DNA of 64,000 nt from assembly GCA_030949385.1 (NCBI GenBank), contig JAUZSP010000002.1, positions 200,534 through 264,533 on the forward strand, read 5' to 3'. How positions within the stretch are numbered: position 1 is the first letter of the stretch; each line of letters starts with the position of its first letter. The stretch is from Gammaproteobacteria bacterium (lineage in GTDB: Bacteria > Pseudomonadota > Gammaproteobacteria > JAUZRS01). Below the pieces are notes generated by a model. That model was not told the DNA's origin. It saw only the letters and a list, made by a program, of their open reading frames with translations, and searched no databases. Position numbers and translations under genes: made by a program. This document shows, piece by piece, positions 1 through 58,251 of this stretch.

Positions 1-797
1 CTCAACTCATTCACTGCCGCCAACATCTCGCCATCGTCGGTGAGGGCTTGGGCGATGGCGCTGGAGCAGGCGGTGACGGGGTTGATGCCGTCAACGATTA
101 ATTTTCCGGTGTGAACCAACAGGCGAGTACTGGCACCTTCGTCTAGGCCACTGCCTTTCAGATTGCGGGTCATCTGAGCAAACTTGACCAACTGGCGGGC
201 GGTCTGTTGATCAACCCCGGTCTCTTTCTCGACGATCTTTTGTTCCAGTGCGCTGCTGGGGTAATCAAACTCCAAGGCCACAAATCGCTGCCGGGTGCTC
301 TGCTTTAGATCTTTGAGCACACTTTGATAACCCGGATTGTAGGAGATCGCCATGCAAAAATCGTCAGGCGCTTCCAGTAACTCACCCAGTTTTTCCATCG
401 GCAGATTGCGCCGATCATCGGTCAGAGGGTGGATCACCACGGTGGTGTCTTTACGCGCTTCGACAATTTCATCCAGATAACAGATGGCTCCGGCTTTCAC
501 TGAGGCGGCCAGCGGGCCATCCATCCAGACCGTTTCACCGCCACTGATTAAATAACGCCCGACCAGATCGGAGGCGGTCAGATCGTCGTGGCAGGAGACG
601 GTGATCAGGGGGCGTTTGAGTCGCCACGCCATGTACTCCATAAAACGGGTTTTGCCGCAGCCAGTAGGGCCTTTGAGCAGCACCGGCAGTTGGTTGCGAT
701 AGGCTGCCTCAAAGATGGCAATTTCCTCGCCAATCGCTTCGTAATAGGGTTCATTTTTAACGTAGTGCTGTTCGGGTTTGATGCTGCGCGCCTTCAT
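1..797 (-). CDS. MoxR-type AAA+ ATPase of the CbbQ/NorQ/NirQ family (nearly full length; last C-terminal residues run off the window edge)
   Basis: Minus-strand translation from ATG at 797..795, preceded by a GAGAGGAG Shine-Dalgarno. Walker [13 protein letters not shown] and conserved [17 protein letters not shown] and [12 protein letters not shown] blocks align closely with CbbQ/NorQ over about 265 aa. CbbQ versus NorQ cannot be decided because no cbbO, RuBisCO or nor gene is in the window. Confidence 0.75.
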
Positions 798-1079
798 AAC
801 GGCTCCTCTCTGCCAATAAGTGATCTGGAGTCGAACGCTAACGTGAAGCGAGGGATTAAACAACCGTAGAATATACAGGGTTACTGGCACTCTATTGGGT
901 CTGTTTATCACTGCATCGGAATTATCTATAGGATATTTGCTGCGAACCGGAGTATCTTTGCAGGTTGTATTTATGGGGCTGCGCAATCGTATTGATGTGA
1001 TCAGCCACCTTTTCATCGAGTCTACGGCACCGTTTTTGGTGTCTGAGCCGTTTATTTGATCCTTTATGGAGGAGCGTAA

Positions 1080-2375
1080 ATGACGGAAGTAATCGCAACC
1101 AACCAGACGATTCTGGTGGTCGGTGGTGGAGTGAGCGGTATGACCGCTGCTCTGGAAGCCGCTGAAATGGGTAAAAAGGTCGTTTTAGTTGAAAAACGGG
1201 CTTTTATTGGTGGTCGAATCACACAGTTGTATAAATATTTCCCTAAGCTGTGTCATCCAACCTGTGGTCTGGAGATCAATCAGCGCCGCGCTAAAATGAA
1301 TCCGAATTTAACCATTCTGACTCTGGCGCAGGTGACGGATTTGACCGGTTCCGAGGGCAATTACAGCGCTAAGGTGACCATCAGTCCACGTTACGTTAAT
1401 GAAAATTGCACCGCGTGTGGCGATTGTGCCAAGGCGGTGGATGCGGAGTTCGACAACGAATTTAATTACGGTCTTGGAGCGATGAAAAAGCGCAAAGGCG
1501 CTTATTTGCCGTACAACATGGCGCATCCGCAAACCTACGTTTTGGATCCGGCGATGATCGGCACCGAAGACGCAGAGAAAGCCAAAGCGGCCTGTAAATA
1601 CAACGCCATCGACTTGGATATGCAAGAAGAGGTCTTGGAGCTGAACATCGGCGCGGTGATCTGGGCGACCGGTTGGCGGCCTTACGATGCGGCTAAAATT
1701 CAGCCTTACGGCTATGACCGCATCGCCAATGTCATTACCAGCGTTGAGTTTGAACGCATGATGGACGCTTCAGGCCCTACTGGGGGCAAGTTGATTCGTC
1801 CTTCTGATGGCAAAGAAGCCAAAGACGTGGCGTTTATCCAGTGTGCTGGTTCGCGGGATAGCAATCATCTTAAACACTGCTCGCGCATCTGTTGCATGGC
1901 TTCATTGAAACAGTCCACCTACGTCAGTGAGCAGTTTGCCGACAGTGGTAAATCCACCATTTATTACATCGACATTCGTGCCATTGACCGTTTTGAAGAT
2001 TTTTACAAAAAGGTGCAGGCGAATAAAAACGTCTCCTTTGTGAAATCCAAAGTGGCCAACATCATTGAAGATAAAGCCACTGGCAATCCGATTTTGCGCG
2101 GTGTGGATACGGAAGGCTATCACCGTTATGAACAACCTCATGATCTGGTGGTGCTGGCGATTGGTATGGAGCCAAGCCTCAATGAAGCGGGTTTCCCAGG
2201 TGATGTGGTCATTAACGAACACGGCTTTATCGAACGTGATGAAAGCAACGGCGCGATTTTCGCCGCCGGTTGTGCGGCGGATGCGCTGGACGTGAACCGT
2301 GCGGTGCAAAGTGCAACGGCGGCTTCATTGCGAGCGATCCAAGTGGTGAATCGCGTTGCCAGAGCGGAGGGCTAA
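1080..2375 (+). CDS. qmoA: HdrA-like FAD flavoprotein (QmoA-type)
   Basis: N-terminal dinucleotide-binding [17 protein letters not shown] Cys cluster [11 protein letters not shown]. HdrA/thioredoxin-reductase-like FAD domain. GGAGGAGCG RBS before the ATG. First gene of a tightly spaced four-gene cluster. Confidence 0.7.
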
Positions 2376-2379
2376 GACG

Positions 2380-4371
2380 ATGGCAGACGAAAAGAAAGTA
2401 GGTGCTTATATTTGTTCTGGTTGTGGCATTGGTGATCGCCTGAACATGGGGCAGTTGGAGATGACCGCCACCCGCGACGGCAAAGCGAAAGTCTGTAAAA
2501 CCCATGACTTCCTCTGTTCCAAAGCCGGTGTGCAGATGATTCAAGACGACATCGACAACGAAGGTGTTAATCAGTTGGCCATTGCGGCCTGTTCGCGCCG
2601 CGCTAAAGTTGAAGCGTTCAACTTCAGTGGTGTATCACAGACTCGCGTTAATTTGCGTGAAGGGGTGATCTGGGCGCGTCCTGAAGGCGACGAGCACACA
2701 GAAACCACTCAAGAGATGGCTGACGATTACGTCCGTATGGGTTGTCATGAGGTCAAAGCCATGAACGTTCCCACCGGCTCTGAAGAGCAGCCGTTGGTGA
2801 AAAGTGTGCTGGTGGTGGGGGGCGGGATTACCGGCCTGACCGCCGCGATTGAAAGTTTCAAAACCGGTTACTCCGTGACCTTGGTGGAAAAAAGCGGTGC
2901 TCTGGGTGGCATGGCGGGCGATCTGTACAAACGAGTGCCGACTCGTGCGCCGTACGCTGAGCCAGAAGAGACGGGGGTTGCTGAGTTGATTGAAGCGGTG
3001 AACGCCGCCGATGGCATCAGCGTACATCTGAACACCACCGTGACCAAAACCGCCGGTGCGCCTGGTCGGTTTGAGATTGATCTGAGCACCGAAAGCGGCA
3101 GCACGGAGACCGCCACGGTGGGTGCCATTGTGCAAGCGAGCGGCATGAAAGCTTACGATGCCAATCAGCTGCCGGAATTTGCGTATGGAAAACATGCCGA
3201 TGTGGTGACCAACGTCGAGTTGGAAGCGTTGGCTAAAGCCGCCAACGGCGGGCCGATGAAACGGCCTTCCGATGGCAAAGAGATTAAAAGCGTTACCTTT
3301 ATTCAGTGTGCCGGTCAGCGTTCTGAGAAAGAAGGTCATCTCTCTTACTGTTCGGGGTTCTGCTGCAATACATCCATCAAGCAGGCGATGTATTTCAAAG
3401 AGAGCAACCCCAATGCGGATACCACGATCCTGTTTACCGATCTGCGTACCCCAGGTGCGGGTGGCGAAGATTTCTATCGCTCTGGGCAGAAAAAAGGCAT
3501 TCTTTTTTCTAAAGGCGAGGTCTCCGAAGTGGTGCCTTCTGCTGAGGGTCTGGAAGTCAAATTTAACGATCTGATTCTGGGCGAAGAGACCTCCATGCAG
3601 GCGGATTTGGTGGTGTTGGCCACCGGTCAAGTGCCGAATTCTGGCCCTGATCCTTACGCCGTTGCTCCAAGCAAAGAAGAGCAGGAAGCGGCTGAAGCAT
3701 CGAACACCGTTGAGATCAGTGTTGAATCCATTCTGAACTTGGATTACCGTCAAGGTACCGATCTGCCGCATCTCTCCAACGGTTTTACCGATTCGCATTT
3801 CATTTGTTTCCCTTATGAAACCCGTCGTACGGGGATCTATTCAGCAGGGCCGGTACGTCGTCCGATGGACACCTTGCAGGCGCAAGACGATGCCATGGGC
3901 GCGGCGCTGAAAGCGATTCAATCCGCTGAAAATGCCGGTCAAGGTCGTGCCGCACATCCGCGTTCGGGGGATCTCTCTTATCCGCTGTTTAGCAAAGAAG
4001 GCTGTACGCAGTGCAAACGCTGTACAGTGGAGTGTCCCTTTGGTGCCATCGACGAAGACGAACGTGGCTTTCCGAAGTTCAATGAGTCCCGTTGTCGCCG
4101 TTGCGGTACCTGCATGGGGGCCTGTCCTGTACGGGTGATTTCCTTTGATAACTACTCCGTTGATACCGTGGGCAATCAGATCAAAAACGTCGATATTCCC
4201 GATGAGTTTGATGAAAAACCACGGATCTTGGTGCTGGCTTGTGAAAACGACGCTTATCCTGCACTGGATATGGGGGCTCAAAACGGCTACCACTACAGCC
4301 AGTGGGCACGGGTGATTCCGGTCCGCTGTTTAGGCTCGGTCAACACCGTTTGGTTAACCGATGCGCTTTGA
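2380..4371 (+). CDS. qmoB: HdrA-like FAD/FeS protein with 2x[4Fe-4S] ferredoxin domain (QmoB-type); reading frame broken at its 3' end
   Basis: N-terminal Cys-rich region (CSGCGIGD, CKTHDFLC). FAD motif VLVVGGGITGLTAAIE. Two CxxCxxCxxxCP motifs (CTQCKRCTVECP, CRRCGTCMGACP). The stop TGA at 4369-4371 falls in the middle of an MvhD-like domain that continues in another frame (see 4302..4625). Confidence 0.7.
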   Translation: MADEKKVGAYICSGCGIGDRLNMGQLEMTATRDGKAKVCKTHDFLCSKAGVQMIQDDIDNEGVNQLAIAACSRRAKVEAFNFSGVSQTRVNLREGVIWARPEGDEHTETTQEMADDYVRMGCHEVKAMNVPTGSEEQPLVKSVLVVGGGITGLTAAIESFKTGYSVTLVEKSGALGGMAGDLYKRVPTRAPYAEPEETGVAELIEAVNAADGISVHLNTTVTKTAGAPGRFEIDLSTESGSTETATVGAIVQASGMKAYDANQLPEFAYGKHADVVTNVELEALAKAANGGPMKRPSDGKEIKSVTFIQCAGQRSEKEGHLSYCSGFCCNTSIKQAMYFKESNPNADTTILFTDLRTPGAGGEDFYRSGQKKGILFSKGEVSEVVPSAEGLEVKFNDLILGEETSMQADLVVLATGQVPNSGPDPYAVAPSKEEQEAAEASNTVEISVESILNLDYRQGTDLPHLSNGFTDSHFICFPYETRRTGIYSAGPVRRPMDTLQAQDDAMGAALKAIQSAENAGQGRAAHPRSGDLSYPLFSKEGCTQCKRCTVECPFGAIDEDERGFPKFNESRCRRCGTCMGACPVRVISFDNYSVDTVGNQIKNVDIPDEFDEKPRILVLACENDAYPALDMGAQNGYHYSQWARVIPVRCLGSVNTVWLTDAL

Positions 4372-4625
4372 GTGAAGGTTACGATGGTGTGGTCTTGATG
4401 GGCTGTCAAAAAGGGGATGACTATCAGTGTCATTTTGTCAAAGGATCTGAGGTGGCCAGCATGCGTATGGGTAAAATTGCCGATACGTTGCAGCAGTTGA
4501 GTCTGGAAGCGGAGCGGGTCTCGACTTATGAAGTGGCCATTACTGACATCCAACGTGCGCCGCAGTTGATCAACGATATGGCCGACACCATTGAGAAGAT
4601 CGGTATGAGCCCCTTCAAATTCTAG
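4302..4625 (+). CDS. MvhD-like (methyl-viologen-reducing hydrogenase delta) domain, out-of-frame continuation of qmoB
   Basis: GYDGVVLMGCQKGDDYQCHFVKGSEVASMRMGKIADTLQQLSL matches the MvhD consensus (GADGVLVxGCHxGDCHYxxGNxKAxxR). Joined to the VIPVRCLGSVNTVWLTDAL end of the upstream ORF it gives a continuous MvhD domain. The frames switch in the TTT run at 4367-4369. Confidence 0.65.
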   Translation: MGTGDSGPLFRLGQHRLVNRCALSEGYDGVVLMGCQKGDDYQCHFVKGSEVASMRMGKIADTLQQLSLEAERVSTYEVAITDIQRAPQLINDMADTIEKIGMSPFKF

Positions 4626-4634
4626 GAGATCAAG

Positions 4635-5264
4635 ATGAGCGAACTTAACACTGCGATGGTGGAAAAATATCGCAACAGTTTCCTCCATGAAGTGGAGGCC
4701 AACGTCGAACAGGGCGATTGGGTCAAGATGTGTATGCAGTGTGGGGTCTGTTCGGGTTCTTGCCCGCTCGGCTCGCACTGGGAACATTCACCCCAAAAGC
4801 TCTTTATGATGATTCGTGCCGGTAAGCGTGAAGAGGTGCTTAGCTCCGACTCCATGTGGATGTGTACCTCGTGTTACAACTGTGTGGTGCGTTGTCCGCG
4901 TGAAGTGCCGATCACCCACATCATGCACGGTTTGGCCAGTTACGCGAAGCGTTTGGGGCTGGTGCCTAAAGGGCAACAGACGGCCAAATTTGCCCAGCAT
5001 TTCTGGGACAACCTGGTCAAAAAAGGTCGGGTTAACGAGCTGAAGTTGGGCTTGAACCTCTACTTTATGAACGGTTTTGCCGAGGGTGTTAAAACCTCGC
5101 TGAAGATGAAAGACATCGGTTTGGGCATGATGAGAACCAAGCGCATGAACCCGATGGAGATCTTCGGTGGCCATAAAGTGAAAGACCTTGACGGCTTCCA
5201 AGCGATGGTGAAAAAAGCCCAAGAGATCGAAACGTCCCGCATTGAAAAGAACATGAACGCCTAA
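4635..5264 (+). CDS. hdrC: HdrC-like iron-sulfur subunit (two CX2CX2CX3CP ferredoxin motifs)
   Basis: CMQCGVCSGSCP and CTSCYNCVVRCP motifs. GGAG RBS. 9 bp after the MvhD fragment. Confidence 0.7.
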   Translation: MSELNTAMVEKYRNSFLHEVEANVEQGDWVKMCMQCGVCSGSCPLGSHWEHSPQKLFMMIRAGKREEVLSSDSMWMCTSCYNCVVRCPREVPITHIMHGLASYAKRLGLVPKGQQTAKFAQHFWDNLVKKGRVNELKLGLNLYFMNGFAEGVKTSLKMKDIGLGMMRTKRMNPMEIFGGHKVKDLDGFQAMVKKAQEIETSRIEKNMNA

Positions 5265-5275
5265 GGAGCTGAACG

Positions 5276-6175
5276 ATGGCGACTAAAGAATATTCGTTTT
5301 ACCCAGGTTGCTCTTCGCAGAAGGGAGCCTCATCGTCCAACTACCTCATCTCGGTGAATTCGATGTGTGAGGAGTTGGACATTAAGCTGAATCACATTCC
5401 AGATTGGAACTGTTGTTCAGCGTCGATTGGTTACGCCAGTGGTGGCGAACTGCCGCGCATGGCGCTGTCGGCGCGCAACATTGCGCTGTCGGAAGAGCAC
5501 AACCCGGGTCAAGAGATTGTGGCCACCTGTGCGGCCTGTTGGTTGGCGACCCGCGAAACTTCAGAGCGTTTGAAAGACAACAGCGACCTGATGGCGGAGA
5601 CCAACGAAGCCTTGGCGATGGCGGGGTTGAAGTTGAAAAACGAAACCCCAATCAAGCACATGGTCGAGGTTTTGATTGAAGACTTTGGTTACGATGCCAT
5701 TGGCGCGAAGGTGAAAAAACCACTGGAAGGGATCAAGATTGCCGGTTATGTCGGCTGTCAGACCAACCGTCCGTTTGGTATTGAGGGCGAATCTTTCGAG
5801 AACCCAAAATACTTGGACAAGTTGGTTGAGACCTTGGGCGCAGAGCCAATTGATAACTACGACAAAAAAGTTCAATGTTGTGGTGGTGCGCTGGCCTTCT
5901 CTGAGCCAGAGAAATCCCAAGCGATGATTAAAGACATCATTGAAGCGGCTTACGATGGCGGTGCCGAGATGATCGTCACCCCGTGTCCGGTCTGCCAGAT
6001 GAACGTTGAGGTTTATCAAGATCAGATTAACGCCAAATACGGCACCAAGTTTAATATGCCAGTGACCTACTACTCCACTCTGATGAGTGTGGCGTACGGT
6101 CGTTCGGCAAAAGACTCGGCGCTGGATGGTCAGATCATTCGTGCGACTCGACTGGAAGAGATTGCCGCTAAATAA
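5276..6175 (+). CDS. hdrB: HdrB-like subunit with CCG (Cys-rich) domains
   Basis: CCG-type motifs (DWNCCSAS, VQCCGGALA, CPVCQMN) typical of HdrB/GlpC/succinate-dehydrogenase subunit C family. 11 bp after hdrC. Confidence 0.7.
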   Translation: MATKEYSFYPGCSSQKGASSSNYLISVNSMCEELDIKLNHIPDWNCCSASIGYASGGELPRMALSARNIALSEEHNPGQEIVATCAACWLATRETSERLKDNSDLMAETNEALAMAGLKLKNETPIKHMVEVLIEDFGYDAIGAKVKKPLEGIKIAGYVGCQTNRPFGIEGESFENPKYLDKLVETLGAEPIDNYDKKVQCCGGALAFSEPEKSQAMIKDIIEAAYDGGAEMIVTPCPVCQMNVEVYQDQINAKYGTKFNMPVTYYSTLMSVAYGRSAKDSALDGQIIRATRLEEIAAK

Positions 6176-6198
6176 GCCGTAATTTTTGATGGTTGAAA

Positions 6199-6237
6199 AA
6201 AGCCCCGCTGAGGTTTCTTGGCGGGGCTTTTTTTGTG
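6199..6237 (+). terminator. Rho-independent terminator after the hdrB-like gene
   Basis: AGCCCCGC ... GCGGGGCT stem followed by a run of 7 T. Confidence 0.6.
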
Positions 6238-6322
6238 CTTGGAAGTTGCACCTTACGGCGGTAGGTGGAAAAATTTCCACCCTTGTTTTGATTCGGGCGA
6301 ATATGGAATTTGCCCCTACAGC

Positions 6323-6931
6323 CTACCCTGTACCAAACAGTGATTTTAAATCCAACGTTATAGCAGGCAAAGCCTCAAGGCTGATCTCCCCCAAGGTTTC
6401 GAGCCGGTGTTGCTGTTGATAGGTTCCATCAATCGGCTGCCGATAAATCTCCAGTGCCTTGCCCTCCACATTGACAATCCAGATCTCAGGAATTTCCGCT
6501 TGCGCGTAGAGCGGCAGTTTGACCGTGCGGTCGTAACGCAGGGTGCTGTCGGCTACTTCAATAATCAGATAAATTTCTTCGGCTCTGGGGTGAGCGGAGC
6601 TGTAAAAATCATCACGGTAGTGCAACAGCGCAATGTCGGGTTGAGGTTCGGATAAGTCGCTGAGGATGACCGGGTCTTGGACTGAAATAATGGCTGCATG
6701 AGCCGCTGCTTGGTTACAAAGATGGCTGAGTTTTTTCACAATTCCGGCGTGTTGGCTGCCAATGGGTGCCATATCAATGACTTCTCCGGTAATGAGTTCA
6801 ACATGATCTTGTGCAGATAAAATACCACTCTCCACCATGCGGTGATAATCGGCGATGCTGAAGCCGTGAGGGTGTGGCTCAAAGGGGGCGGCTGTGGCCA
6901 TCGTGTTCTCCAATATGGGGAAAGTTGGCAT
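6323..6931 (-). CDS. Uma2-family (DUF820) restriction-endonuclease-like protein
   Basis: About 200 aa. Conserved acidic/His residues and a C-terminal EIPEIWIVNVEGKALEIYRQP-like segment characteristic of Uma2 proteins. Isolated gene between a terminator and murA. Confidence 0.5.
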   Translation of the reverse strand: MPTFPILENTMATAAPFEPHPHGFSIADYHRMVESGILSAQDHVELITGEVIDMAPIGSQHAGIVKKLSHLCNQAAAHAAIISVQDPVILSDLSEPQPDIALLHYRDDFYSSAHPRAEEIYLIIEVADSTLRYDRTVKLPLYAQAEIPEIWIVNVEGKALEIYRQPIDGTYQQQHRLETLGEISLEALPAITLDLKSLFGTG

Positions 6932-11429: not shown

Positions 11430-11535
11430 CGTGTTTTTGTGGAGACAAGCGTCTGTTAATTGAGACTTGTGGTGGTAAATGAGAGGTGGTATCTACGAGG
11501 TGGGTCTTTATGAACGATAACCAGTATGTGGTTGG

Positions 11536-12632
11536 TTGAGCGCCTTGAAGAAAAAGCCGCCTTTACAGAATCCAAATCAGCTTTATCAGCAGATACAAAG
11601 CTGGGCAGCGGAGCTGGGTTTTCAGCAACTGGAAGTCACCGACACCGACCTGAACCACATCGAAGCCTATTTTGAGTCGTGGCTGGCGCGCGGTTTTATG
11701 GGTTCCATGAGCTACATGGCGCGCCACGGCAGCAAACGCACCCGCCCGGCGGAGCTGGAGCCAGGCACCTTACGGGTGATTTCGGTGCGGATGAATTATC
11801 ACTCCACCGGAGGCCGACGACACCGATTCAGGTGCTGCAAGACCCCAGTTTAGCCTACCTCTCTCGTTACGCCTTGGGGCGTGATTACCACAAAGTGATG
11901 CGGAAAAAATTGCAAAAGCTGGCGGACAAAATGGCCGCTGAGGTGGGTGAGTTTGGTTATCGGGTGTTTGTGGACAGCGCGCCGGTAATGGAAAAACCGC
12001 TGGCAGAAAAGGCCGGTCTCGGCTGGATCGGTAAACACACCAACTTAATCAATAAAAAAGCCGGTTCGTGGTTTTTTCTCGGTGAGATCTACACCGATCT
12101 GCCCTTGCCGGTTACGCCATCGGGTTTGAATCAGAGCCATTGTGGTAACTGTTCGGCCTGCATGACGGTCTGTCCAACGCAGGCGATTATCGCCCCTTAC
12201 GAGCTGGATGCGCGGCTCTGTATCTCTTATCTCACCATTGAATATGACGGTTTTATTGCCGATCCGCTGGCCTCTCAACTGGGCAACCGCATCTACGGTT
12301 GTGATGATTGCCAATTGGTCTGCCCGTGGAATCGCTTCTCAAAAATCAGTGAGGAGGCGGATTTTGCTGTGCGTCACGGTCTGGATCGAGCGGCGTTGCT
12401 GGATCTTTATCAGTGGAGTGAGGCGCAGTTTTTAGAACGGTTTCAAGGCTCACCGGTACGCCGCATCGGTTATCAACGTTGGTTGCGTAATTTGACCATT
12501 GGCTTGGCTAATGGTGAAGCGTCGGTTGCGGTGCAAGCGGCGTTGCAGGTTCGTTTGGCTGAGTCTGAGGGGGTGTTGAAAGAGCAGATTGGCTGGGCTT
12601 TGGCGAAGCTAAGGCGACAAGATCCTGTTTAA
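11536..12632 (+). CDS. queG: Epoxyqueuosine reductase QueG, reading frame interrupted (frameshift near 11795-11830)
   Basis: The N-terminal part (11536..) and the C-terminal part (frame of 11679..12632) each match QueG: YALGRDYHK, 4Fe-4S motif CGNCSACMTVCP, C-terminal HEAT-like region. Joining them requires a 1-nt frame change around 11800-11825. Confidence 0.8.
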
Positions 12633-17615: not shown

Positions 17616-17692
<77 letters not shown>

Positions 17693-18281: not shown

Positions 18282-19796
18282 ATGAATAAAGAGATCCTCT
18301 TGGTTGTTGATGCCGTTTCTAATGAAAAGGGCGTTGATAAGGAAATAATATTCCAGGCGTTGGAAGCGGCTTTGGCCTCTGCTACGCGAAAAAATTACAG
18401 TGCGGACATTGATGTACGAGTAGCGATTGATCGGGAAAGTGGGGCTTACACCACTTATCGTCGCTGGGAAGTGCTTGAGGATGATGAGAAACAAGAGCAT
18501 CCCACGCGCCAGATCTGTCTCACCGTTGCGCAGATGGATGCGCCTGATATTCAGCTTGGTGAGTTCTCTGAAGATGAGGTTGAGTCGGTTAAGTTTGGTC
18601 GCATTGCGGCACAAACCGCCCGCCAAGTGATTGTACAAAAAGTACGTGAAGCGGAACGGGCGCGCGTGGTGGATGCCTATCTTGATCGTGTTGGTGAGTT
18701 GCTGATGGGCGTGGTCAAGCGCGTTGATCGTAACGGCGTTTATCTGGATTTGGGTAATAATGTCGAAGCTTTTGTGGCGCGTGATGAGCTGATTCCTCGT
18801 GAGGCGGTACGCCCTGGGGATCGTTTGCGCGGCTACCTTAAGGAAGTACGCACCGAAAGCCGAGGCCCGCAACTGTTTGTCAGTCGCACCTCACCTGAGT
18901 TTTTGCAGGCGCTGTTTAAATTAGAAGTGCCAGAGGTGGGTCAAGAGATGATCGAAATCATGGGCGCAGCGCGTGATCCTGGCGCACGCGCCAAGATCGC
19001 GGTGCGTTCTAATGATCCGCGCCTTGATCCTGTGGGAGCCTGTGTGGGTATGCGGGGTTCGCGGGTACAGACGGTCTCGAATGAGTTGTCAGGCGAGCGG
19101 GTTGATATTATCCTCTGGGACGAAAATCCAGCGCAGTTTGTCATTAATGCCATGTCTCCGGCTGAAGTCCTCTCCATTGTGGTGGATGAGGACAAACATT
19201 CGATGGACATTGCTGTTGAGGGTGAAAAGCTCTCTTTGGCCATTGGGCGTAACGGCCAAAATGTGCGTTTGGCCAGTGAGTTGACCGGTTGGTCGCTGAA
19301 CGTCATGGATGAAGCGCAGGTGGATGAGAAAAACGAGAATGAAGCTCGTGAGACTCTAAAGCTGTTTGTCGCGCAGCTGGATGTGGATGAAGAGGTGGCT
19401 CTGATTCTGGTTCAGGAAGGGTTCAGCAGCGTCGAAGAGGTGGCTTATGTGCCGACTCAGGAGTTACTGGATATTGAAGAGTTTGATGAAGATACGGTGT
19501 CTGAGTTACGAAATCGTGCTCGTGATGCCTTGTTGATCAAAGCCATTGCAACGGAGGAGAAATTGGAGGGTGATAAACCCGCTGAGGATCTTCTGGCAAT
19601 GGAAGGTATGGATCAAGACACAGCTTATGCCCTAGCGGGTTTGGGTGTGGTGAGTATGGAAGATTTAGCTGAGCAGTCCATTGATGAAATTATGGCAGTG
19701 GATGAAATGGATGAAGAGCGAGCAGCTGAATTAATTATGAAAGCGCGTGAACCGTGGTTTGCGGAAGACACACAACAAGATAAGAGCGTCGATTGA
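18282..19796 (+). CDS. nusA: Transcription termination/antitermination factor NusA
   Basis: [17 protein letters not shown]... Colinear with E. coli NusA (S1, KH1, KH2, AR1/AR2 acidic repeats). Confidence 0.95.
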
Positions 19797-19818
19797 GATC
19801 GACCGGGAGATTTTGCTC

Positions 19819-22376
19819 ATGACGGACGTAACCGTAAAGCAGCTGGCTGAGGTTGTTGGCACCCCGGTCGAGCGTTTAATAGAACAGCTCAATGAAGCCG
19901 GTATTGTAAAACAGAAAGCGGATGATCTGGTTAGCAATAAAGAAAAAATGCAGCTGCTGGATTCGCTGCGCAGCTCGCACGGCAAAGAGGAAGCCGCCGA
20001 TGGCGCGCCGAGTAAGATTACTCTGCGCCGTAAACGCATGAGTACACTTAAGGTGGACTCCGGTGCCGCGCGTGGTAAAAAAACCGTCAATATCGAAGTT
20101 CGTTCCAAACGCACTTACGTCAAACGGACTAACGTTGCTGATGAAGAGGCGAAGAAGCAGGCGTTAGAAGAAGAGCGTCTGCGCCAAGAGCAGCTAGAGA
20201 AAGAGAAAGAAGAACAGCGTTTTCAAGAGGCTGAACGCCTTAAAGTTGAAGAAGAAGCGCGTGTTAAAGCTGAAGCTGACGCGAAATTGGCCGCTGAGCA
20301 GGCGCTTGTTAAAGCAGAAGCTGAGGCGAAAAAAGCCGAAGCAGATGCGAAATCAAAGGCTGAAGCAGCGAAGGCTAAGCCAAAACCGAAAGCTGACCAG
20401 CAAAAGCACCAGCAAAAGTAGATGCACGTAATAAACGTCCCGCTGCTGGGCAAAATAACAAAGGCGCTAAGTCCTCAGGCAGCAATACCCGTTACGGTCG
20501 TAACGAATTGCATGTGGCCAGTGGTCGTGGTGGCAAACGCAATAAAAAAGGCAAAGGTCGTGGTCGTGCGGCACCGGTGACGACAGAGACGCGGCATCGT
20601 TTTGAGAAGCCTGTTGAAGCCGTGGTTCGTGATGTTAAATTGGGTGAAACGATTACCGTTTCAGACTTGGCCAATATCATGTCGGTGAAAGCCACCGAAG
20701 TGATCAAAGAGATGATGAAGATGGGGGTTATGGCCACCATTAATCAAGTCATTGATCAAGAGACTGCCACCTTGGTAGTGGAAGAGATGGGGCATAACGT
20801 CATCCTCTCTTCTGGTGATGCGATGGAAAATTCATTGGCCAACAGCGATGAGGATCGGGGTGAGTTGGTCACCCGTCCACCGGTTGTGACTGTGATGGGT
20901 CATGTTGATCACGGTAAAACGTCTTTACTGGATTACATTCGTACCTCTAAAGTGGCTTCCGCTGAAGCTGGTGGCATTACTCAACATGTGGGTGCGTACC
21001 ACGTTGAAACCGATAAAGGCATGGTCACCTTCCTTGATACGCCAGGACATGCGGCCTTTACCGCCATGCGTGCTCGTGGTGCCAAGAGCACCGATATTGT
21101 TGTCTTGGTTGTTGCCGCCGATGACGGTGTAATGCCACAAACCATCGAAGCGATTCAGCATGCAAAAGCAGCTGAGGTGCCGTTGGTGGTGGCAATCAAT
21201 AAAATTGATAAACCGGATGCCGATCCCGAGCGAGTCAAAAACGAGCTCGGTAACCACAACGTCATTCCCGAAGATTGGGGTGGCGATGTGATGTTTGTTA
21301 ATGTCTCGGCCAAAACCGGTGAAGGCATTGAGGATTTGCTGGATGCGTTGATTTTGCAAGCGGAATTCCTTGAATTAACGGCTTATGAAAAAGGCAGTGC
21401 CACCGGTGTGGTGGTGGAAGCGAGCTTAGATAAAGGTCGCGGTCCGGTTGCTACCATTTTGGTGCAGTCAGGTCTGCTTAAAAAGGGTGACACTCTGTTG
21501 GCCGGTACGGAATACGGTCGGGTGCGAGCGCTGTTTGATGAAGATGGTCTGCCGATTGAATCCGCAGGTCCTTCTATTCCGGTGGTGGTTTTGGGGCTTT
21601 CTGGTACACCGGAGGCCGGTGGCGAAATGATGGTCACCAAAGACGAGCGTAAAGCGCGTGAAGTGGCGCTTTATCGTCAAGGTAAATACCGTGATGTTCG
21701 CCTTGCTGCACGTAAACCAGCCAAGCTGGAAGATGTCTTTGCACAGATTAAAGACGGTGAGTTGCAGGTTCTGAACTTAGTGGTCAAGTGTGATGTGCAG
21801 GGCAGCTACGAAGCACTGCGCGACTCGCTGGAGAAAATTTCCACTGATGAAGTCAGTGTGCGGGTTATTGGTGGCGGTGTCGGTGGGATCAACGAATCAG
21901 ATGTTCAGTTGAGCGTCTCTTCGAAAGCCATTTTGATCGGTTTTAATGTCCGTGCCGATGCTACCGCCCGTCGTTTGATCTCCGAACGTGAGGTGGAACC
22001 GTACTACTACAGCATCATCTACGAAGTCATTGATCAAGTACGCGGTGTGGCGTCTGGCCTGCTGGCTCCTGAAATTCAAGAGCGCATTATCGGTTTGGCT
22101 GAAGTGAAAGATGTGTTTAGTTCGCCTAAGTTTGGTGACATTGCCGGTTGCATGGTGATTGACGGTGCGGTGCGCCGTGCGGAACCGATTCGTGTCCTGC
22201 GTGACAACGTGGTGATTTACGAAGGTGAGCTGGAATCCCTGCGTCGCTTTAAAGACAATGTGGAAGAGGTTCGCATGGGTACTGAATGTGGTATCGGAGT
22301 GAAAAACTACAGTGATGTGCGCCCAGGTGATCAGATCGAAGTCTTTGAACGTAAAGAGGTGGCACGCACCCTTTAA
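19819..22376 (+). CDS. infB: Translation initiation factor IF-2, apparent frameshift at about 20394-20421
   Basis: N-terminal [14 protein letters not shown]... plus the Lys/Glu/Ala-rich region lie in the frame of ORF 19747..20421. The G-domain and C-terminus ([25 protein letters not shown], ...[11 protein letters not shown]) lie in the frame of 20508..22376. The frames change within CAAAAGCACCAGCAAAAG. Confidence 0.9.
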
Positions 22377-35931: not shown

Positions 35932-36008
<77 letters not shown>

Positions 36009-38024: not shown

Positions 38025-38339
38025 TTATTTTCCAGCAGGCAAACCTGAGAAGTGAGCAGCCAAGTTGGCCATATCAGAATCGCTCAAAGGTTTGGCCATA
38101 TTGCCCATGATGGGGTCTTTACGCGTACCGCTTTTGAAGGCTTTCAGTTGTTTAACGAGGTAGCCTTCTTTTTGGCCTGCCAAGTTGGGGAACAGAGGGC
38201 CTATGCTGATACCAGCAGAGCCATGACAACCGGCACAAACGGCTGATTTTGATTTGCCAGCAGCTGCATCGCCGCCCGCCAAAGTTGCTCCACTAACAGC
38301 CATAAAGGTTGCGGCGACGATAAATGCTATTTTTTTCAT
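38025..38339 (-). CDS. Class I monoheme cytochrome c (c552/c553-like), periplasmic
   Basis: Signal peptide, single CAGCHG heme-binding motif, distal Met region. Confidence 0.8.
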
Positions 38340-38864
38340 ACTCTACTTCTCCATTGGCTCCGATCAGGAGCGATTAAAATTCAAATTGTTCATTGTTCTC
38401 AGTTTTTTGAGATGAACGGCTTGGCAGTGATTGTTTCAAATTACCCCAGGCGGTGTAAACAATATTGCGGTGACTAAAGTGGGTCACTTATTAGTATGTG
38501 CATAGAATATCAGAATTTTTTTATAATTTTTAGAGCTTTATCGCACTTTTTGCCCATTTGCCTGAAAATAAGCCCGATTGGTCGCTGGTTTTATTGTTCG
38601 ATTTGTGGCTGGAGAGAAGTTCGTTAGAGGTTAACAATTATTACGCCATCAATAGAGAGGTTGTTCGCTTTTATTTTCTGTGCTTGTGAGGCAGATGAGG
38701 GGAGCTTGTTCGGTGCGAACTCCTTTGCGCCTATTAATATGTGTAAAAATGGCTAAAAATCTGATTTTTTATGACCTTTTGATCGGTAGGGTCATTGTTT
38801 TTAGGTTCAAAAAGGAGTAGATTGCCCGCACTTAATATTAGCAAACTCTAATTAAGGTGTTTTG

Positions 38865-40664
38865 ATGGATTCGAAAGCAGTTGATCCCCGTTGGCTCTGG
38901 TTATTTCCTTTTATGAGTTGGTTGCCTTCGGTAACCAAACGCGATGTGCGTGCCGATGTGATGGCGGCGATTACCGGCGCTATTGTGGTGTTGCCGCAAG
39001 GGGTGGCGTTTGCCACCATCGCCGGTATGCCGCCGGAATACGGTCTCTATGCGGGCATGATTCCGGCTATTATTGCCGCGCTGTACGGTTCATCAAAACA
39101 TCTGGTCTCGGGGCCAACCACGGCAGCGTCCATCGTCTTGTTTTCGGCTCTGTCGGTGTACGCTGAACCAGGTTCAATGGATTACGTTGCCTTGGCCTTG
39201 ACCTTGACCTTTATGGTGGGGGTATTTCAGATTGTTTTAGGCTGGGCACGAATGGGGGTGTTGGTTAACTTTATCTCTCATTCGGTGATCATTGGTTTCA
39301 CCGCCGGTGCGGCGTTGTTGATCGCCGCCAAGCAGTTGACGTATTTTTTTGGGATCGAAATTGAGCGCGGCGGTCATATGCACGAAATTTTGATTCAATT
39401 TTTTCAGCAGTTGGGTGACATTAACCCTTATGTGACCTTGGTGGCGATGGTGACGCTGTTGTCGGGCATTGCGATTAAACGCTGGATGCCACGAGTGCCG
39501 TACATGGTGATGGCGATGTTGATTGGCAGTATTGTTGCGGCGATTATCAACACTTTATTAGGTGGAGAAGCCGTGACCGGTGTGGTGACAGTGGGAGCAT
39601 TGCCTGCCAGTTTGCCACCCTTGTCGGCTCCCTCCTTAACACTGGAAAACATCAAAAACTTAGCGCCTGTGGCCTTGGCGGTGACTCTGTTCGCCTTGAC
39701 CGAAGCGGTCTCTATTGGCCGTTCTTTGGCCGCTAAGGGCGGTTATCGCATTGATGGTAATCAGGAGTTTATTGGCCAAGGCCTCTCTAATGTGGCAGGT
39801 TCATTTTTCTCCGGTTATGTGGCAACGGGATCGTTTAATCGCAGTGGTTTGAACTTCCAGTCCGGTGCGCGTACCCCGATTGCGGCCATGTTGGCGGGTC
39901 TGTTGCTGATGCTGATTGTTTTGCTGGTGGCTCCTTGGGCGGCTTACTTGCCCAAAGCGGCGATGGCGGGCATTCTCTTTCTGGTGGCTTGGGGGTTGAT
40001 CGATTTTCATGAGATTGGCCATATTTTGAAAGCCTCTAAGCGAGAAACGACCATTTTGTTGGTGACTTTCTTGAGCGCGCTCTTTTTGGAATTGGAGTTT
40101 GCTATTTTTGCTGGTGTGTTGCTCTCTTTGGTGCTTTATCTGGAGCGCGTTTCTAAGCCACGTACCGTGACTCGCACCCCTGATCCTCGTTTGCCTAAAC
40201 AGGCTTTCTCCAGTGATCCGAGTTTGACCCAGTGTCCACAGCTGCGTTTTGTGCGCGTGGATGGTTCGCTCTTTTTTGGCTCGGTCAGTCATGTGCAGGA
40301 CTTTTTCGACAAAATACGCAGTGAGTTTCCTGAGCAGACGCATCTGGCGCTCTTTACTCAAGGGATTAATTTTGTTGACCCTCAAGGGGGGGATGCGCTG
40401 GTGGAAGAGGCCAAACGGCGACGTGAAATGGGTGGCGCACTCTATTTGATCAACGTCAAGCAGGGCTTGTGGGATTCATTGGAGCGATGTGGCTGTTTGG
40501 ATGAGATTGATCCTCGGCATGTGTTCCAGTCAAAAACCGCCGCCATTCACGCCCTTTATCAGAAATTGAATCGTGATAAGTGTAACGTGTGTGATGCGCG
40601 TATTTTCCATGAGTGTGGTAAAAAAGTCGAAACTGAGAGGGAGGTAACGTTAAATAAGGTTTGA
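38865..40664 (+). CDS. SulP-family anion transporter with C-terminal STAS domain
   Basis: SulP signature region (LVSGPTTAASIVLF...), about 11 TM helices. STAS domain (LRFVRVDGSLFFGSVSH...). Extra C-terminal CNVCDARIFHEC segment. Confidence 0.85.
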   Translation: MDSKAVDPRWLWLFPFMSWLPSVTKRDVRADVMAAITGAIVVLPQGVAFATIAGMPPEYGLYAGMIPAIIAALYGSSKHLVSGPTTAASIVLFSALSVYAEPGSMDYVALALTLTFMVGVFQIVLGWARMGVLVNFISHSVIIGFTAGAALLIAAKQLTYFFGIEIERGGHMHEILIQFFQQLGDINPYVTLVAMVTLLSGIAIKRWMPRVPYMVMAMLIGSIVAAIINTLLGGEAVTGVVTVGALPASLPPLSAPSLTLENIKNLAPVALAVTLFALTEAVSIGRSLAAKGGYRIDGNQEFIGQGLSNVAGSFFSGYVATGSFNRSGLNFQSGARTPIAAMLAGLLLMLIVLLVAPWAAYLPKAAMAGILFLVAWGLIDFHEIGHILKASKRETTILLVTFLSALFLELEFAIFAGVLLSLVLYLERVSKPRTVTRTPDPRLPKQAFSSDPSLTQCPQLRFVRVDGSLFFGSVSHVQDFFDKIRSEFPEQTHLALFTQGINFVDPQGGDALVEEAKRRREMGGALYLINVKQGLWDSLERCGCLDEIDPRHVFQSKTAAIHALYQKLNRDKCNVCDARIFHECGKKVETEREVTLNKV

Positions 40665-40755
40665 AGCGAGTATATATACATTGGCTGTACTTGGAGCAAA
40701 TGAATTGTTCGATTTTTTTGAATGTAGTAATTAAGTGGAGATTTGGAACGTGAAA

Positions 40756-41049
40756 ATGCAAGCTGTATCTGCGGTTTTTTTGATGTTGGGTCTATGGAAT
40801 GTAGCTCAAGCAGGGGATGTGGTTGCGGGCAAAAAAGCCTCTGCGATGTGTGCCGGATGTCATGGGGCGGCAGGTGTGAGCGCCATCGGTCAAAACCCTA
40901 ATCTTGCAGGTCAGAATGAAGCCTACTTCATCAATACCTTGAAAGCTTATCGTGATGGGAAGCGCAAACACTCGATGATGGGCATGGTCTCAAAAGGATT
41001 GAGTGATGCGGATATGGCCAATCTTGCTGCCTATTATAAAAGCCTTTAA
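40756..41049 (+). CDS. Class I monoheme cytochrome c, paralog of 38025..38339
   Basis: Signal peptide, CAGCHG motif. About 50% identical to the other cytochrome. Confidence 0.8.
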   Translation: MQAVSAVFLMLGLWNVAQAGDVVAGKKASAMCAGCHGAAGVSAIGQNPNLAGQNEAYFINTLKAYRDGKRKHSMMGMVSKGLSDADMANLAAYYKSL

Positions 41050-52747: not shown

Positions 52748-53806
52748 TTAGCAGATGCGGGGCAACTGCTCACCTACCAACATGTCCACAATGCGTTCAC
52801 CGCCAAAGCTTGTTTTGAGAATGACCCGTTCTGCAGGCGTGGCCAACACGTCTCCGATGATGGCGCTTTTTTGACCGGCGGGGTGTTGTTGCATGGTGGC
52901 CAATACCGCTTCTGCGTGTTTGGCGGGGACGATGGCAATCACTTTGCCCTCGTTGGCCAAGTAGAGCGGATCAAGGCCTAAAATTTCACACATGCCGCGT
53001 ACCTCTTGGCGAATCGGAATGGCGGTTTCATTTAGTCGGATTGCCACTTGGCTGCTGCTGGCAAATTCGTTTAGCACCGTGGCCACTCCGCCTCGGGTGG
53101 CGTCCCGCATACAGCGAATTTCAGGACAGGTCTGCAACATCGCTTCGATGAGGCCATTGAGGGGTTGGCAATCGGATTGAATGTTATTTTCCATCGCCAG
53201 TTCGCCCCGCGCATCGACAATGGCCGCGCCGTGATCACCCAGATAACCGTTGATGATGACCTTGTCGCCCACGTGTGCGTGGTGAGCAGCGAGATTGAGG
53301 TGAGGGGCAATCACGCCAACCCCTGCGGTGTTGATAAACAGCTTGTCCGCCGCGCCGCGTTGCACCACTTTGGTATCGCCGGTGACAATCGCCACTCCGG
53401 CAGCGTCCGCAGCCTGTTTCATTGATGCGACCACACGCCGTAGCGTTGCCACGGGCAGACCCTCTTCGATGATCATGCCGCAGCTCAAATAGAGCGGTTT
53501 GGCGCCGCCAACGGCCAAATCATTGACCGTGCCACAGACCGCCAGCTCACCGATGTCACCCCCAGGAAAAAACAGCGGGTCAACCACATAGGAGTCGGTG
53601 GTCATGGCCAGTTGAGAGCCGTATTGAGCGAGATCCGACAGCTCAAAACGGGCTTGATCTTCCAAGCCTGTGAGGTGCTCATTATCAAAACCACTGACAA
53701 AAACATCGTCGATCAGGTCACGCATGGCTTTGCCACCTGCGCCGTGGGCGAGGGTGATGGTGTCGGCTCTGAGTGTTCGTTTATTTCGAATTGGGGCGGG
53801 TTTCAC
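52748..53806 (-). CDS. hypE: [NiFe]-hydrogenase maturation protein HypE
   Basis: AIR-synthase-related fold. C-terminal ...GEQLPRIC (the PRIC thiocyanate-carrying cysteine motif). Confidence 0.9.
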   Translation of the reverse strand: MKPAPIRNKRTLRADTITLAHGAGGKAMRDLIDDVFVSGFDNEHLTGLEDQARFELSDLAQYGSQLAMTTDSYVVDPLFFPGGDIGELAVCGTVNDLAVGGAKPLYLSCGMIIEEGLPVATLRRVVASMKQAADAAGVAIVTGDTKVVQRGAADKLFINTAGVGVIAPHLNLAAHHAHVGDKVIINGYLGDHGAAIVDARGELAMENNIQSDCQPLNGLIEAMLQTCPEIRCMRDATRGGVATVLNEFASSSQVAIRLNETAIPIRQEVRGMCEILGLDPLYLANEGKVIAIVPAKHAEAVLATMQQHPAGQKSAIIGDVLATPAERVILKTSFGGERIVDMLVGEQLPRIC

Positions 53807-54963
53807 GCAGATTCTCCGTCATTAGAGGTTGATTTACGCTTGGCTAGCAGTTCTGGTAAGTTGCCGAAATTGTAGTAGGCGGCGCAGGCACCTTCAGAGG
53901 AGACCATTAATGCTCCCATTGGGGTTTCAGGGTTACACTGACTGCCAAACACTTTGCATTGCCAAGGGCGAATCGCTCCTTTGAGCACCTCACCGCATTG
54001 ACATGCTTTGGGATCTGCAATTTTTAGGTTGGGAATCTGAAATTTTTTCTCGGCATCAAAATCAACGTATTTCTCGCGCATCTTCACCCCAGAGTGATCA
54101 ATGGAACCGAGGCCGCGCCATTCAAAAAATTCTCGTAATTCAAACACCTCTTGAATGGCGTTGAGCGCCGGAGTATTGCCCTCTTTAGGCACCACGCGCG
54201 CGTATTGGTTTTCCACCGTGCAGCGTTTTTCCGCCAGTTGTTTGAGGGTCATCCAGATGGATTGCAAAATATCCAGAGGTTCAAATCCGGTGATCACCAA
54301 AGGGCGTTGATAGTGCTCAGCGACAAATTCAAAGGGGGTTTCTCCTACGACCATGCAGACATGGCCGGGAGCCAAAAAGGCATCGATGCGCATGTCAGGT
54401 GAGTCGAGAATGGCTTTGATGGTGGGTACGGTGGTGATGTGATTGCAAAACAGAGCAAAGTTTTTAATGCCGTCACGTTCGGCTTGTTGCACCGTCAATG
54501 CGGTGCTGGGCATGGTGGTCTCAAAGCCGAGGGCGAAAAAGATCACCTGTTTTTCAGGGTTTTTACGCGCCAAGTTGAGGGCATCCAGTGGCGAATAGAC
54601 CATGCGGATGTCGGCTCCCTCTGCTTTGGCTTGCAGCAGGCTCTTTTTGGAGCCAGGCACGCGCATGGCATCGCCAAAGGTGGTGAAGATCACATTGGGG
54701 CGTTCGGCTAAGGAGACGCAGTCATCCACTCGTCCCATGGGCAGCACGCAGACGGGGCAGCCGGGCCCATGTACCAGTTCAATCCAATCGGGCAGCATCT
54801 GTTCGATGCCGTAGCGAAAGATGGTGTGGGTGTGTCCACCGCAAAACTCCATTAACTGAAGAGGGCGATGTTTTGTGTCTGGTAGGGCGTTTTTTAGGCC
54901 GTTAATCTGTTTGATCAGTTGTTGCGCCTTGTCAGGATCGCGGAATTCGTCAACGTATTTCAT
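53803..54963 (-). CDS. hypD: [NiFe]-hydrogenase maturation protein HypD
   Basis: Conserved HypD Cys motifs (CGGHTH, GPGCPVC, FEPL..). 386 aa. Confidence 0.9.
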   Translation of the reverse strand: MKYVDEFRDPDKAQQLIKQINGLKNALPDTKHRPLQLMEFCGGHTHTIFRYGIEQMLPDWIELVHGPGCPVCVLPMGRVDDCVSLAERPNVIFTTFGDAMRVPGSKKSLLQAKAEGADIRMVYSPLDALNLARKNPEKQVIFFALGFETTMPSTALTVQQAERDGIKNFALFCNHITTVPTIKAILDSPDMRIDAFLAPGHVCMVVGETPFEFVAEHYQRPLVITGFEPLDILQSIWMTLKQLAEKRCTVENQYARVVPKEGNTPALNAIQEVFELREFFEWRGLGSIDHSGVKMREKYVDFDAEKKFQIPNLKIADPKACQCGEVLKGAIRPWQCKVFGSQCNPETPMGALMVSSEGACAAYYNFGNLPELLAKRKSTSNDGESA

Positions 54964-55924: not shown

Positions 55925-55931
55925 AAGGTGG

Positions 55932-58250: not shown

Positions 58251-58251
58251 A

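Follow-up and report, generated by a model that had tools for sequence, protein, structure and literature searches.

A probable soluble QmoAB-HdrCB operon of the sulfur-oxidiser type, with a frame break in qmoB, in a gammaproteobacterial contig

Introduction

Four tightly packed genes near the start of a 64,000-nucleotide stretch of gammaproteobacterial DNA (assembly GCA_030949385.1, contig JAUZSP010000002.1, positions 200,534 to 264,533 of the forward strand; this whole stretch is called the window below) raise the question of which electron-transfer complex they encode and which enzyme this complex serves. A first-pass annotation had read them as a Qmo-like module in which HdrC and HdrB replace the membrane subunit QmoC, with no genes for adenosine 5'-phosphosulfate (APS) reductase (aprBA) in sight. 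The answer reached here is that the locus is very probably a standard soluble QmoAB-HdrCB operon of sulfur-oxidising Gammaproteobacteria, with an inferred AprBA partner encoded elsewhere and with a break in qmoB that is most likely an artefact. Its host has not been cultured; it is a gammaproteobacterium of the vent type, with Sedimenticola and Candidatus Thiodiazotropha as relatives.

Operon structure and protein identity

Based on the listing of open reading frames (ORFs), family scans and folding, the operon and its boundaries are composed as follows, with position 1 being the first letter of the window:

1080-2375, plus strand: qmoA, 431 amino acids, HdrA-like flavin adenine dinucleotide (FAD)/[4Fe-4S] flavoprotein with FAD/Rossmann domains
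2380-4371, plus strand: 5' part of qmoB as assembled, 663 codons from the ATG at 2380 to a premature TGA; Cys-rich N-terminal domain, HdrA-like FAD domain, 2x[4Fe-4S] ferredoxin and the first third of an MvhD-like domain
4362-4363, plus strand: 2-nucleotide insertion in qmoB, TG or equivalently a GC duplication, which shifts the frame
4364-4625, plus strand: 3' part of qmoB, read in the -1 frame; covers the other two thirds of the MvhD-like domain, with two of its four invariant Cys
4635-5264, plus strand: hdrC, 209 amino acids, 2x[4Fe-4S] subunit without a membrane domain
5276-6175, plus strand: hdrB, 299 amino acids, two CCG domains
about 6195-6238, plus strand: intrinsic terminator, 12-bp GC-rich stem, 4-nucleotide loop, U7
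798-1079: divergent intergenic region between cbbQ and qmoA, 282 bp, with a GGAGGAG Shine-Dalgarno sequence at 1067-1073
1-797, minus strand: cbbQ/norQ-type MoxR AAA+ ATPase gene, first 265 codons, its 3' end beyond the window start

The four genes lie on the same strand with gaps of 4, 9 and 11 nucleotides (qmoA/qmoB/hdrC/hdrB), in line with the tight packing described at first pass, and a GGAGG Shine-Dalgarno-like site precedes each of the four starts. For qmoB, the ATG at 2380, located 4 nucleotides past the qmoA stop, is the most plausible start. The distance to the divergent ATPase gene (AAA_5 plus CbbQ_C), earlier put at about 280 bp, is 282 bp. The terminator said to close the cluster is equally present: its hairpin and U7 were spotted by eye and confirmed by folding (dG -29.7 kcal/mol, z = -6.3, with 0 of 200 shuffles as stable), having been missed by a consensus scan. 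Since it has an upstream A-run, it may act in both directions. One part of the earlier description did not hold, namely that qmoB is a single intact gene; its frame stops at 4371, and the frameshift had been overlooked.

QmoA, identical in sequence to NCBI MDQ7074117.1, aligns with residues 141-561 of the 654-residue methanogen HdrA 5ODC_A (E = 1e-80) and matches the HdrA2 model at positions 136-562; it has no counterpart of the ferredoxin domains found at the two ends of HdrA. It contains a CAGSRD...CSRICC Cys cluster. Its homologues at 73-79% identity belong to Sedimenticola, Candidatus Thiodiazotropha, other thiotrophic symbionts and metagenome-assembled genomes (MAGs) from vents and sediments, and many of them carry the IMG label QmoA. 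QmoB combines an HdrA-like FAD domain with a ferredoxin part, which has two CxxCxxCxxxC motifs, and with an FlpD/MvhD domain at the C-terminus. HdrC has two CxxCxxCxxxC motifs (Fer4_8/Fer4_17) and matches TIGR03290 (E = 6e-26) and PDB HdrC (E = 2.5e-19), and HdrB contains the Pfam CCG domain twice and matches TIGR03288 (E = 2e-50) and, over its full length, PDB HdrB (E = 1e-39). Both five-Cys CCG motifs of HdrB are complete (C12, C46, C47, C85, C88 and C161, C201, C202, C237, C240). The locus as a whole thus holds the motifs for two flavins, for the cubane clusters of QmoB and HdrC, for a four-Cys MvhD-type site and for two HdrB non-cubane-type sites.

In QmoC, an HdrC-like Fe-S domain is joined to a membrane domain of the di-haem cytochrome b type. 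Such a protein in the operon was ruled out: HdrC lacks a transmembrane segment (maximum Kyte-Doolittle 19-mer score 0.66), and its match to the qmoC model is confined to the N-terminal soluble part (positions 6-91 of 360). Because the only hydrophobic 19-mers in the four proteins are FAD GxGxxG strands, all four products are predicted to be soluble. Both the composition proposed in the first-pass annotation (QmoA, QmoB, HdrC and HdrB without QmoC) and the solubility it expected are therefore upheld by the domains, the HdrB and HdrC models and the hydrophobicity scores. The qmoC model was the sole Qmo model among the NCBIfam matches, and the best models for QmoA and QmoB were those of HdrA2/HdrA, far below their cut-offs. 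Instead of the current NCBI names, 'FAD-dependent oxidoreductase' and 'CoB-CoM heterodisulfide reductase subunit A family', the names QmoA, QmoB, HdrC and HdrB are better suited.

Relationship to Qmo and to other Hdr-type complexes

The ancestry of the flavoproteins was assessed in neighbour-joining (NJ) distance trees with 100 bootstraps; the sequences compared included no cultured Desulfovibrio or Chlorobaculum reference, and relatives outside the clade were found by searching 50%-identity representatives. QmoB groups with aprBA-linked QmoB in 100% of the bootstraps, and the methanogen HdrA P0250 (E = 1e-235 to 8RVV/5ODC) falls outside the grouping of the window QmoA and QmoB. Outside the clade, the QmoA-sized protein clusters most similar to the window QmoA, at 52% and 44% identity, are encoded in aprB-aprA-qmoA-qmoB-(qmoC)-sat gene clusters, and the closest outside relatives of QmoB likewise belong to aprBA-qmoABC-sat clusters. 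HdrB, in turn, scores 2e-50 with the HdrB model versus 6e-6 with GlpC/GlcF-type models.

Two findings had been named in advance as speaking against Qmo: clustering with methanogen-type Hdr or GlcF-like proteins, and aprBA or qmoC genes directly past the window start. The former was not seen in the NJ trees or with the HdrB models. As for the latter, the region upstream of cbbQ in the close relatives L001 and L086 contains no apr or qmoC gene, and is occupied by small hypothetical genes, an FKBP/SlyD-like gene and housekeeping genes. Since neither finding was made, the Qmo reading stands.

The presence of HdrA-, HdrB- and HdrC-like proteins in a sulfur oxidiser could also suggest a variant of sHdr, the sulfur-oxidising system (HdrC1B1A-Hyp-HdrC2B2 with a lipoate-binding protein) by which a protein-bound persulfide is oxidised to sulfite, and sHdrA (6TJR) is indeed a detectable homologue of QmoA (E = 8e-32). 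In sHdr, two hdrCB pairs surround one short hdrA plus a hyp gene, and genes for lipoate-binding proteins lie nearby. The operon described here, however, has two long HdrA-like genes followed by one hdrCB pair, without hyp, second hdrCB or lbpA. Moreover, QmoB carries ferredoxin and MvhD domains that are absent in sHdrA, QmoA matches methanogen HdrA (1e-80) far better than it does sHdrA, and HdrAACB and HdrCBAHypHdrCB are handled as separate systems in the literature (PMC6397845). Gene content has effectively refuted an sHdr variant already, and its probability is negligible.

Linkage to APS reductase

The surroundings of the module were surveyed in 80 species-representative related loci, the counts being limited to loci with enough length or flank. 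The order qmoA-qmoB-hdrC-hdrB on one strand is found in all 63 gammaproteobacterial loci that are long enough, and a QmoC-like gene in 0 of the 80. An aprB-aprA pair lies within 10 kb in 10 of the 55 loci with sufficient flank, and no other recognisable set of redox-enzyme genes is recurrent in the flanks. The AprB proteins of these relatives carry the diagnostic PF12139 (APS-reductase_C) domain, and the AprA of one relative shares 84-89% identity with all 120 matches listed, which are AprA proteins of many organisms including Thiobacillus, Sulfurivermis and Thiothrix. In the proposal of Meyer and Kuever, QmoABC or QmoAB(-HdrBC) would dock to lineage-II AprB at a loop of the form KGxD/EK/R (PMC2211403); the AprB of the related locus L008 reads KGQDK at this position. 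In Desulfovibrio, the interaction between QmoA and AprAB has been measured, with QmoA as the Apr-contacting subunit (PMC3333476), and this QmoABC-AprAB contact is the only one on record.

In these flanks, the aprB-aprA pair is accompanied, before or after, by a gene for a CxxCxxCC protein of about 300 amino acids (PF03692, YkgJ-type). This regular, conserved companion was seen in L008, L013, L014, L020, L026, L041, L043, L045, L066 and L081, and also in L087 and L089; it occurs in sulfur oxidisers as well as in aprBA-qmoABC clusters.

Several points weigh against an Apr-linked QmoAB-HdrCB operon. The grouping of the window QmoA with Apr-linked QmoA reaches only 48-65% bootstrap in what is a simple NJ tree. 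aprBA lies beyond 10 kb in 45 of the 55 related loci. Within the 64-kb window, AprA and AprB queries from relatives gave no tblastn match, and the annotation, which covered part of the ORFs, shows no aprBA, sat, dsr or sox gene, so the earlier statement that aprBA and sat are missing from the window agrees with what was found. QmoB as assembled is without two of the four invariant Cys of its MvhD-like domain, and a genuine insertion would probably leave this strain with an impaired complex. The literature yielded no biochemical study of a QmoAB-HdrCB complex; that the complex partners with Apr in this organism, which way its electrons flow and what accepts them are inferred from published work (PMC3333476, PMC2211403, PMC10504309).

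The low linkage to aprBA could also be taken as a sign of an Apr-independent complex, that is, a soluble flavin-based bifurcating Hdr-type complex in which, e.g., a hydrogenase or formate dehydrogenase at the MvhD-like domain would deliver electrons to a disulfide plus ferredoxin or nicotinamide adenine dinucleotide (NAD+). HdrB and HdrC are homologous over their full length to those of the bifurcating methanogen HdrABC, the MvhD-like domain is present, and a [NiFe] hydrogenase with a hyp cluster occurs in the window at 52.7-64 kb. This hydrogenase is, however, about 47 kb away and looks like an H2 sensor. In addition, the trees place QmoA and QmoB beside Apr-linked Qmo and apart from methanogen HdrA, the annotated recurring neighbour clusters include none for a hydrogenase or formate dehydrogenase, and aprBA is the one redox-enzyme set recognised repeatedly in the flanks. 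A bifurcating complex independent of Apr is therefore considered very unlikely.

Proposed electron flow

In the Apr-linked reading, the complex would work in the cytoplasm as redox partner to a dissimilatory APS reductase of lineage II (AprBA), whose genes would lie elsewhere in the genome. AprBA would convert sulfite and adenosine monophosphate to APS, and the two electrons released would leave the FAD of AprA through the [4Fe-4S] clusters of AprB. From AprB they would be passed to QmoA, then over the QmoB flavin, ferredoxin and MvhD-like clusters to the two cubane clusters of HdrC, and finally to HdrB, whose two non-cubane clusters might reduce an acceptor of the disulfide type. Such an acceptor is suggested because the HdrB site is of the CCG type, and the leading candidate would be a DsrC-like or other protein or thiol disulfide. 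With its two flavins, the complex may also couple this transfer to another acceptor or donor through electron bifurcation or confurcation. Which acceptor soluble QmoAB-HdrCB uses is a standing question in the field, and a matter for biochemistry rather than for this locus. The first-pass annotation had presented the open partner as an issue raised by the locus itself, which is not the case.

The frame break in qmoB

As assembled, the qmoB frame ends after FlpD profile positions 1-48, inside the MvhD-like domain, and FlpD positions 47-123 (E = 4e-20) are found in the -1 frame (ORF 4302-4625). The insertion was placed by alignment with the locus of the closest relative, L006, a MAG from the Arctic Mid-Ocean Ridge that shares 94% nucleotide identity and is colinear over 11.4 kb. 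Its context is ACCGA[TG]CGCTTTGAG, and it is the sole frame-breaking indel in the 11 kb compared. The insertion is missing from L001, L002 and L004 too. Intact QmoB proteins of 747-752 amino acids are encoded in L001, L002, L086 and Sedimenticola thiotaurini, and 65 related QmoB ORFs of 730-800 amino acids were recovered whole. Deleting the two nucleotides yields a QmoB of 747 amino acids, equal in length to those of L001, L002 and L086. All 68 of the 68 QmoB sequences share the same four Cys in the MvhD-like domain (C621, C650, C675 and C683), and the frameshift divides these invariant residues two and two.

Past the frameshift, 20 of the codon differences to L006 are synonymous and 5 are non-synonymous, much as elsewhere in the operon (synonymous to non-synonymous, 27:6 in hdrC and 36:2 in hdrB), which indicates that the lesion is either very recent or not real. 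The reading frames of two further genes of the window, queG and infB, are disrupted too, with a net shift equal to that in qmoB. As infB is essential, and as it and queG are broken likewise within the same 64 kb, an assembly error is favoured and is the likely cause of the break.

The other explanation of the break is a real, recently inactivated pseudogene cluster, in which QmoB would be truncated and Qmo-dependent sulfite oxidation lost or being lost, with another route such as SoeABC in its place. The frameshift is, after all, present in the deposited sequence, it splits the invariant Cys of the MvhD-like domain, and a dinucleotide insertion is not a homopolymer-length error. The mostly synonymous codon changes after the shift and the intact hdrC and hdrB argue against such decay, as do the roughly 65 recovered relatives, all of which are intact; the similar breaks in infB and queG point to consensus errors. 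Inactivation in this strain is thus regarded as unlikely, but it deserves more weight than the Apr-independent and sHdr readings discussed above.

A programmed frameshift in qmoB was rejected, as the 2-nucleotide insertion is absent from L006 and all other homologues, and the CUU-UGA context would require a +1 shift that leads directly into another stop.

The two other broken genes were inspected as well. queG (epoxyqueuosine reductase, 11521-12632, plus strand) is split into ORFs 11521-11853 and 11676-12632; its N-terminal part ends '...GTLRVISVRMNY' in one frame and the remainder reads '...LQDPSLAYLSRYALGRDYHKV...' in another. Because the third frame reads 'TPPEADDTD' across the junction, two nearby 1-nucleotide indels are suggested. 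infB (19741-22376, plus strand) is split into an N-terminal ORF of 224 amino acids (19741-20421) and one of 622 amino acids in another frame (20397-22376), which spans the entire TIGR00487 IF-2 core; the junction lies near 20,390-20,420, within a Lys/Ala/Pro-rich repeat. Caution is warranted in using this MAG contig, which carries frame-breaking indels in at least three genes.

The divergent cbbQ gene and the shared spacer

ATPases of the CbbQ/NorQ group of MoxR AAA+ proteins consist of an AAA_5 core and a CbbQ_C domain, and act with an adjacent VWA partner, CbbO or NorD. The window gene has both domains (Pfam AAA_5 1e-30, CbbQ_C 4e-30), and its product is about equally near to the RuBisCO activase CbbQ 5C3C (E = 2e-104) and to NorQ 9QH4 (E = 3e-95). 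Where the two could be aligned, over at least half of the 265-residue fragment, its identity to the L006 orthologue is 100%.

A divergent cbbQ is located upstream of qmoA in 30 of the 66 related loci with enough flank, at a distance of 1.2 kb or less in 10 of these 30. A VWA protein of 700 amino acids, of the CbbO/NorD type, is encoded next after cbbQ in 23 related loci; L001 and L086, which are among the closest relatives, have cbbQ without an adjacent VWA partner. The loci with the cbbQ-qmo arrangement are scattered over deep branches of the QmoA tree, two large derived clades are without it, and the other neighbours change. Because of this distribution, the arrangement looks ancestral and often retained.

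Loci in which it recurs include L012, L021, L024-L025, L031, L033, L035-L037, L039, L042-L043, L045-L046, L048, L053, L056, L062-L063, L065-L067, L071, L074, L076-L077 and L081. Their flanks are usually without RuBisCO or nor genes. In Thiodiazotropha, a REC-PAS-GGDEF-EAL gene is situated between cbbQ and the qmo operon.

The 282-bp spacer is presumed to be the promoter or regulatory region. Compared to L006 it is 99.6% identical (1 difference in 283 columns), with 85% identity at the 4-fold degenerate sites of qmoA; compared to L001 and L086 it is 85% identical (about 94% in the 190 nucleotides proximal to qmoA), with 66-68% at the 4-fold sites. Since it is more conserved than these sites, the spacer is under constraint. 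A sigma-70 consensus scan found no promoter in it, the counts being below the shuffle expectation, although the same scan missed the real terminator. No 10-mers are common to the spacer and more distant relatives. A structured RNA or riboswitch was rejected as a candidate (no Rfam match, fold z = 0.12).

Considering the divergent pairing in 30 of 66 loci and the unusually conserved spacer in the window lineage, it could be proposed that the qmo-adjacent CbbQ serves the Qmo-Hdr (or Apr) complex in cofactor insertion or remodelling, or is co-regulated with it, rather than acting on RuBisCO or nitric oxide reductase. The literature search returned no described cbbQ-qmo linkage, and papers naming both handle each apart. 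In a Thiodiazotropha transcriptome, cbbQ and cbbO rise with RuBisCO, and qmoAB rise under a different condition (PMC13137333), which counts against a coupling if the same gene copies are meant. Such a link is for now a lead of low probability.

Other features of the window

A hydrogenase cluster occupies 52748-64000 on the minus strand, in the order hypE, hypD, an ORF of 228 amino acids, hypF and the [NiFe] subunits, followed past the small subunit by a histidine kinase, a sigma-54 response regulator and hypB, which continues past the window end. The subunit genes are located as follows:

58252-59970, minus strand: [NiFe] hydrogenase large subunit
59703-60794, minus strand: [NiFe] hydrogenase small subunit

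The likely start of the small subunit (MSRPFRLLWLQSG...) leaves no space for a twin-arginine translocation (Tat) signal, and the protein apparently begins at the conserved Cys-containing motif. Because of this start and the adjoining histidine kinase and sigma-54 regulator, the enzyme looks like an H2 sensor, and the layout resembles the H2-sensing HoxBC/HupUV-HoxJ-HoxA system.

Within 38025-41049, two genes for small mono-haem cytochromes c, at 38025-38339 (minus strand) and 40735-41049 (plus strand), lie on either side of a gene at 38862-40664 for a sulfate permease of the SulP family, which includes a STAS domain. This permease is a possible sulfate exporter in a sulfur oxidiser. Between hdrB and murA, a Uma2-family endonuclease gene is present (6323-6931, minus strand). 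The stretch 6245-6931, set against L006 6328-7068, is the sole loss of colinearity, with 175 bp that align at 85%, and is a small variable spot.

Two tRNA genes with a CAT anticodon were located. The one at 17616-17692 (plus strand) lies upstream of rimP-nusA-infB-rbfA-truB-pnp, in a metY-like position, and the one at 35932-36008 (minus strand) directly downstream of an rpoD-like gene, in an ileX-like position. Their positions agree with the gammaproteobacterial synteny that had been noted for this DNA.

The module in sulfur oxidisers

The first-pass annotation had treated the layout as a trait of Gram-positive sulfate reducers that is unexpected in a proteobacterium. HdrBC does replace QmoC in Desulfotomaculum and its relatives (PMC3333476, PMC10504309). 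QmoAB-HdrBC is, however, documented in sulfur-oxidising Beta- and Gammaproteobacteria too, often unlinked to aprBA (PMC4136832, PMC6397845, PMC10504309, PMC10356861, PMC2211403), so that the layout is no surprise here. Watanabe et al. included 'HdrAACB/QmoABHdrCB' among the proteins surveyed in 82 beta- and gammaproteobacterial sulfur oxidisers (PMC6397845), and qmoAB-hdrBC was reported away from aprAB in Thiolapillus brandeum and Thiobacillus denitrificans (PMC4136832). Since the module is documented in sulfur-oxidising proteobacteria, the locus is a new sequence of a described system: its identification holds, and its novelty does not, the identity of the module being already known. Both the module and its separation from aprBA in these bacteria have been in the literature since at least 2007-2014, which leaves little discovery value.

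Comparison with known systems

The methanogen HdrABC-MvhAGD complex (5ODC, 8RVV, 7BKB) shares with the window a homologous flavoprotein core, an HdrB with two non-cubane-cluster motifs, an HdrC with two cubane clusters and an MvhD-type domain. In the window, by contrast, QmoA and QmoB represent a split and duplicated HdrA, QmoB includes MvhD as a fused domain, and there is no MvhAG hydrogenase.

The canonical membrane-bound QmoABC of sulfate reducers and Chlorobi, among them Desulfovibrio, Archaeoglobus and Chlorobaculum, has the same QmoA and QmoB architecture. Compared to it, the window operon is without QmoC and hence without a haem-b membrane domain and a quinone site, and has instead separate HdrC and HdrB proteins with a disulfide-reductase-type active site. 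The QmoAB-HdrCB of Gram-positive sulfate reducers shows the same replacement of QmoC by HdrBC, the likeness being one of gene content. In those organisms the pathway is reductive and the genes usually lie with sat-aprBA, whereas the window holds a standalone module in a sulfur-oxidising gammaproteobacterium.

The closest match is the QmoAB-HdrBC/HdrCB ('HdrAACB') of sulfur oxidisers, as carried by Thiolapillus brandeum Hiromi 1, Thiobacillus denitrificans, Sedimenticola, Candidatus Thiodiazotropha and Candidatus Taurinisymbion. It has the same four genes in the same order and with the same domains, is likewise soluble and without QmoC, and is commonly found apart from aprBA. The window differs from it in nothing substantial: its qmoB is frameshifted, and its lineage has a cbbQ without an adjacent cbbO-like gene.

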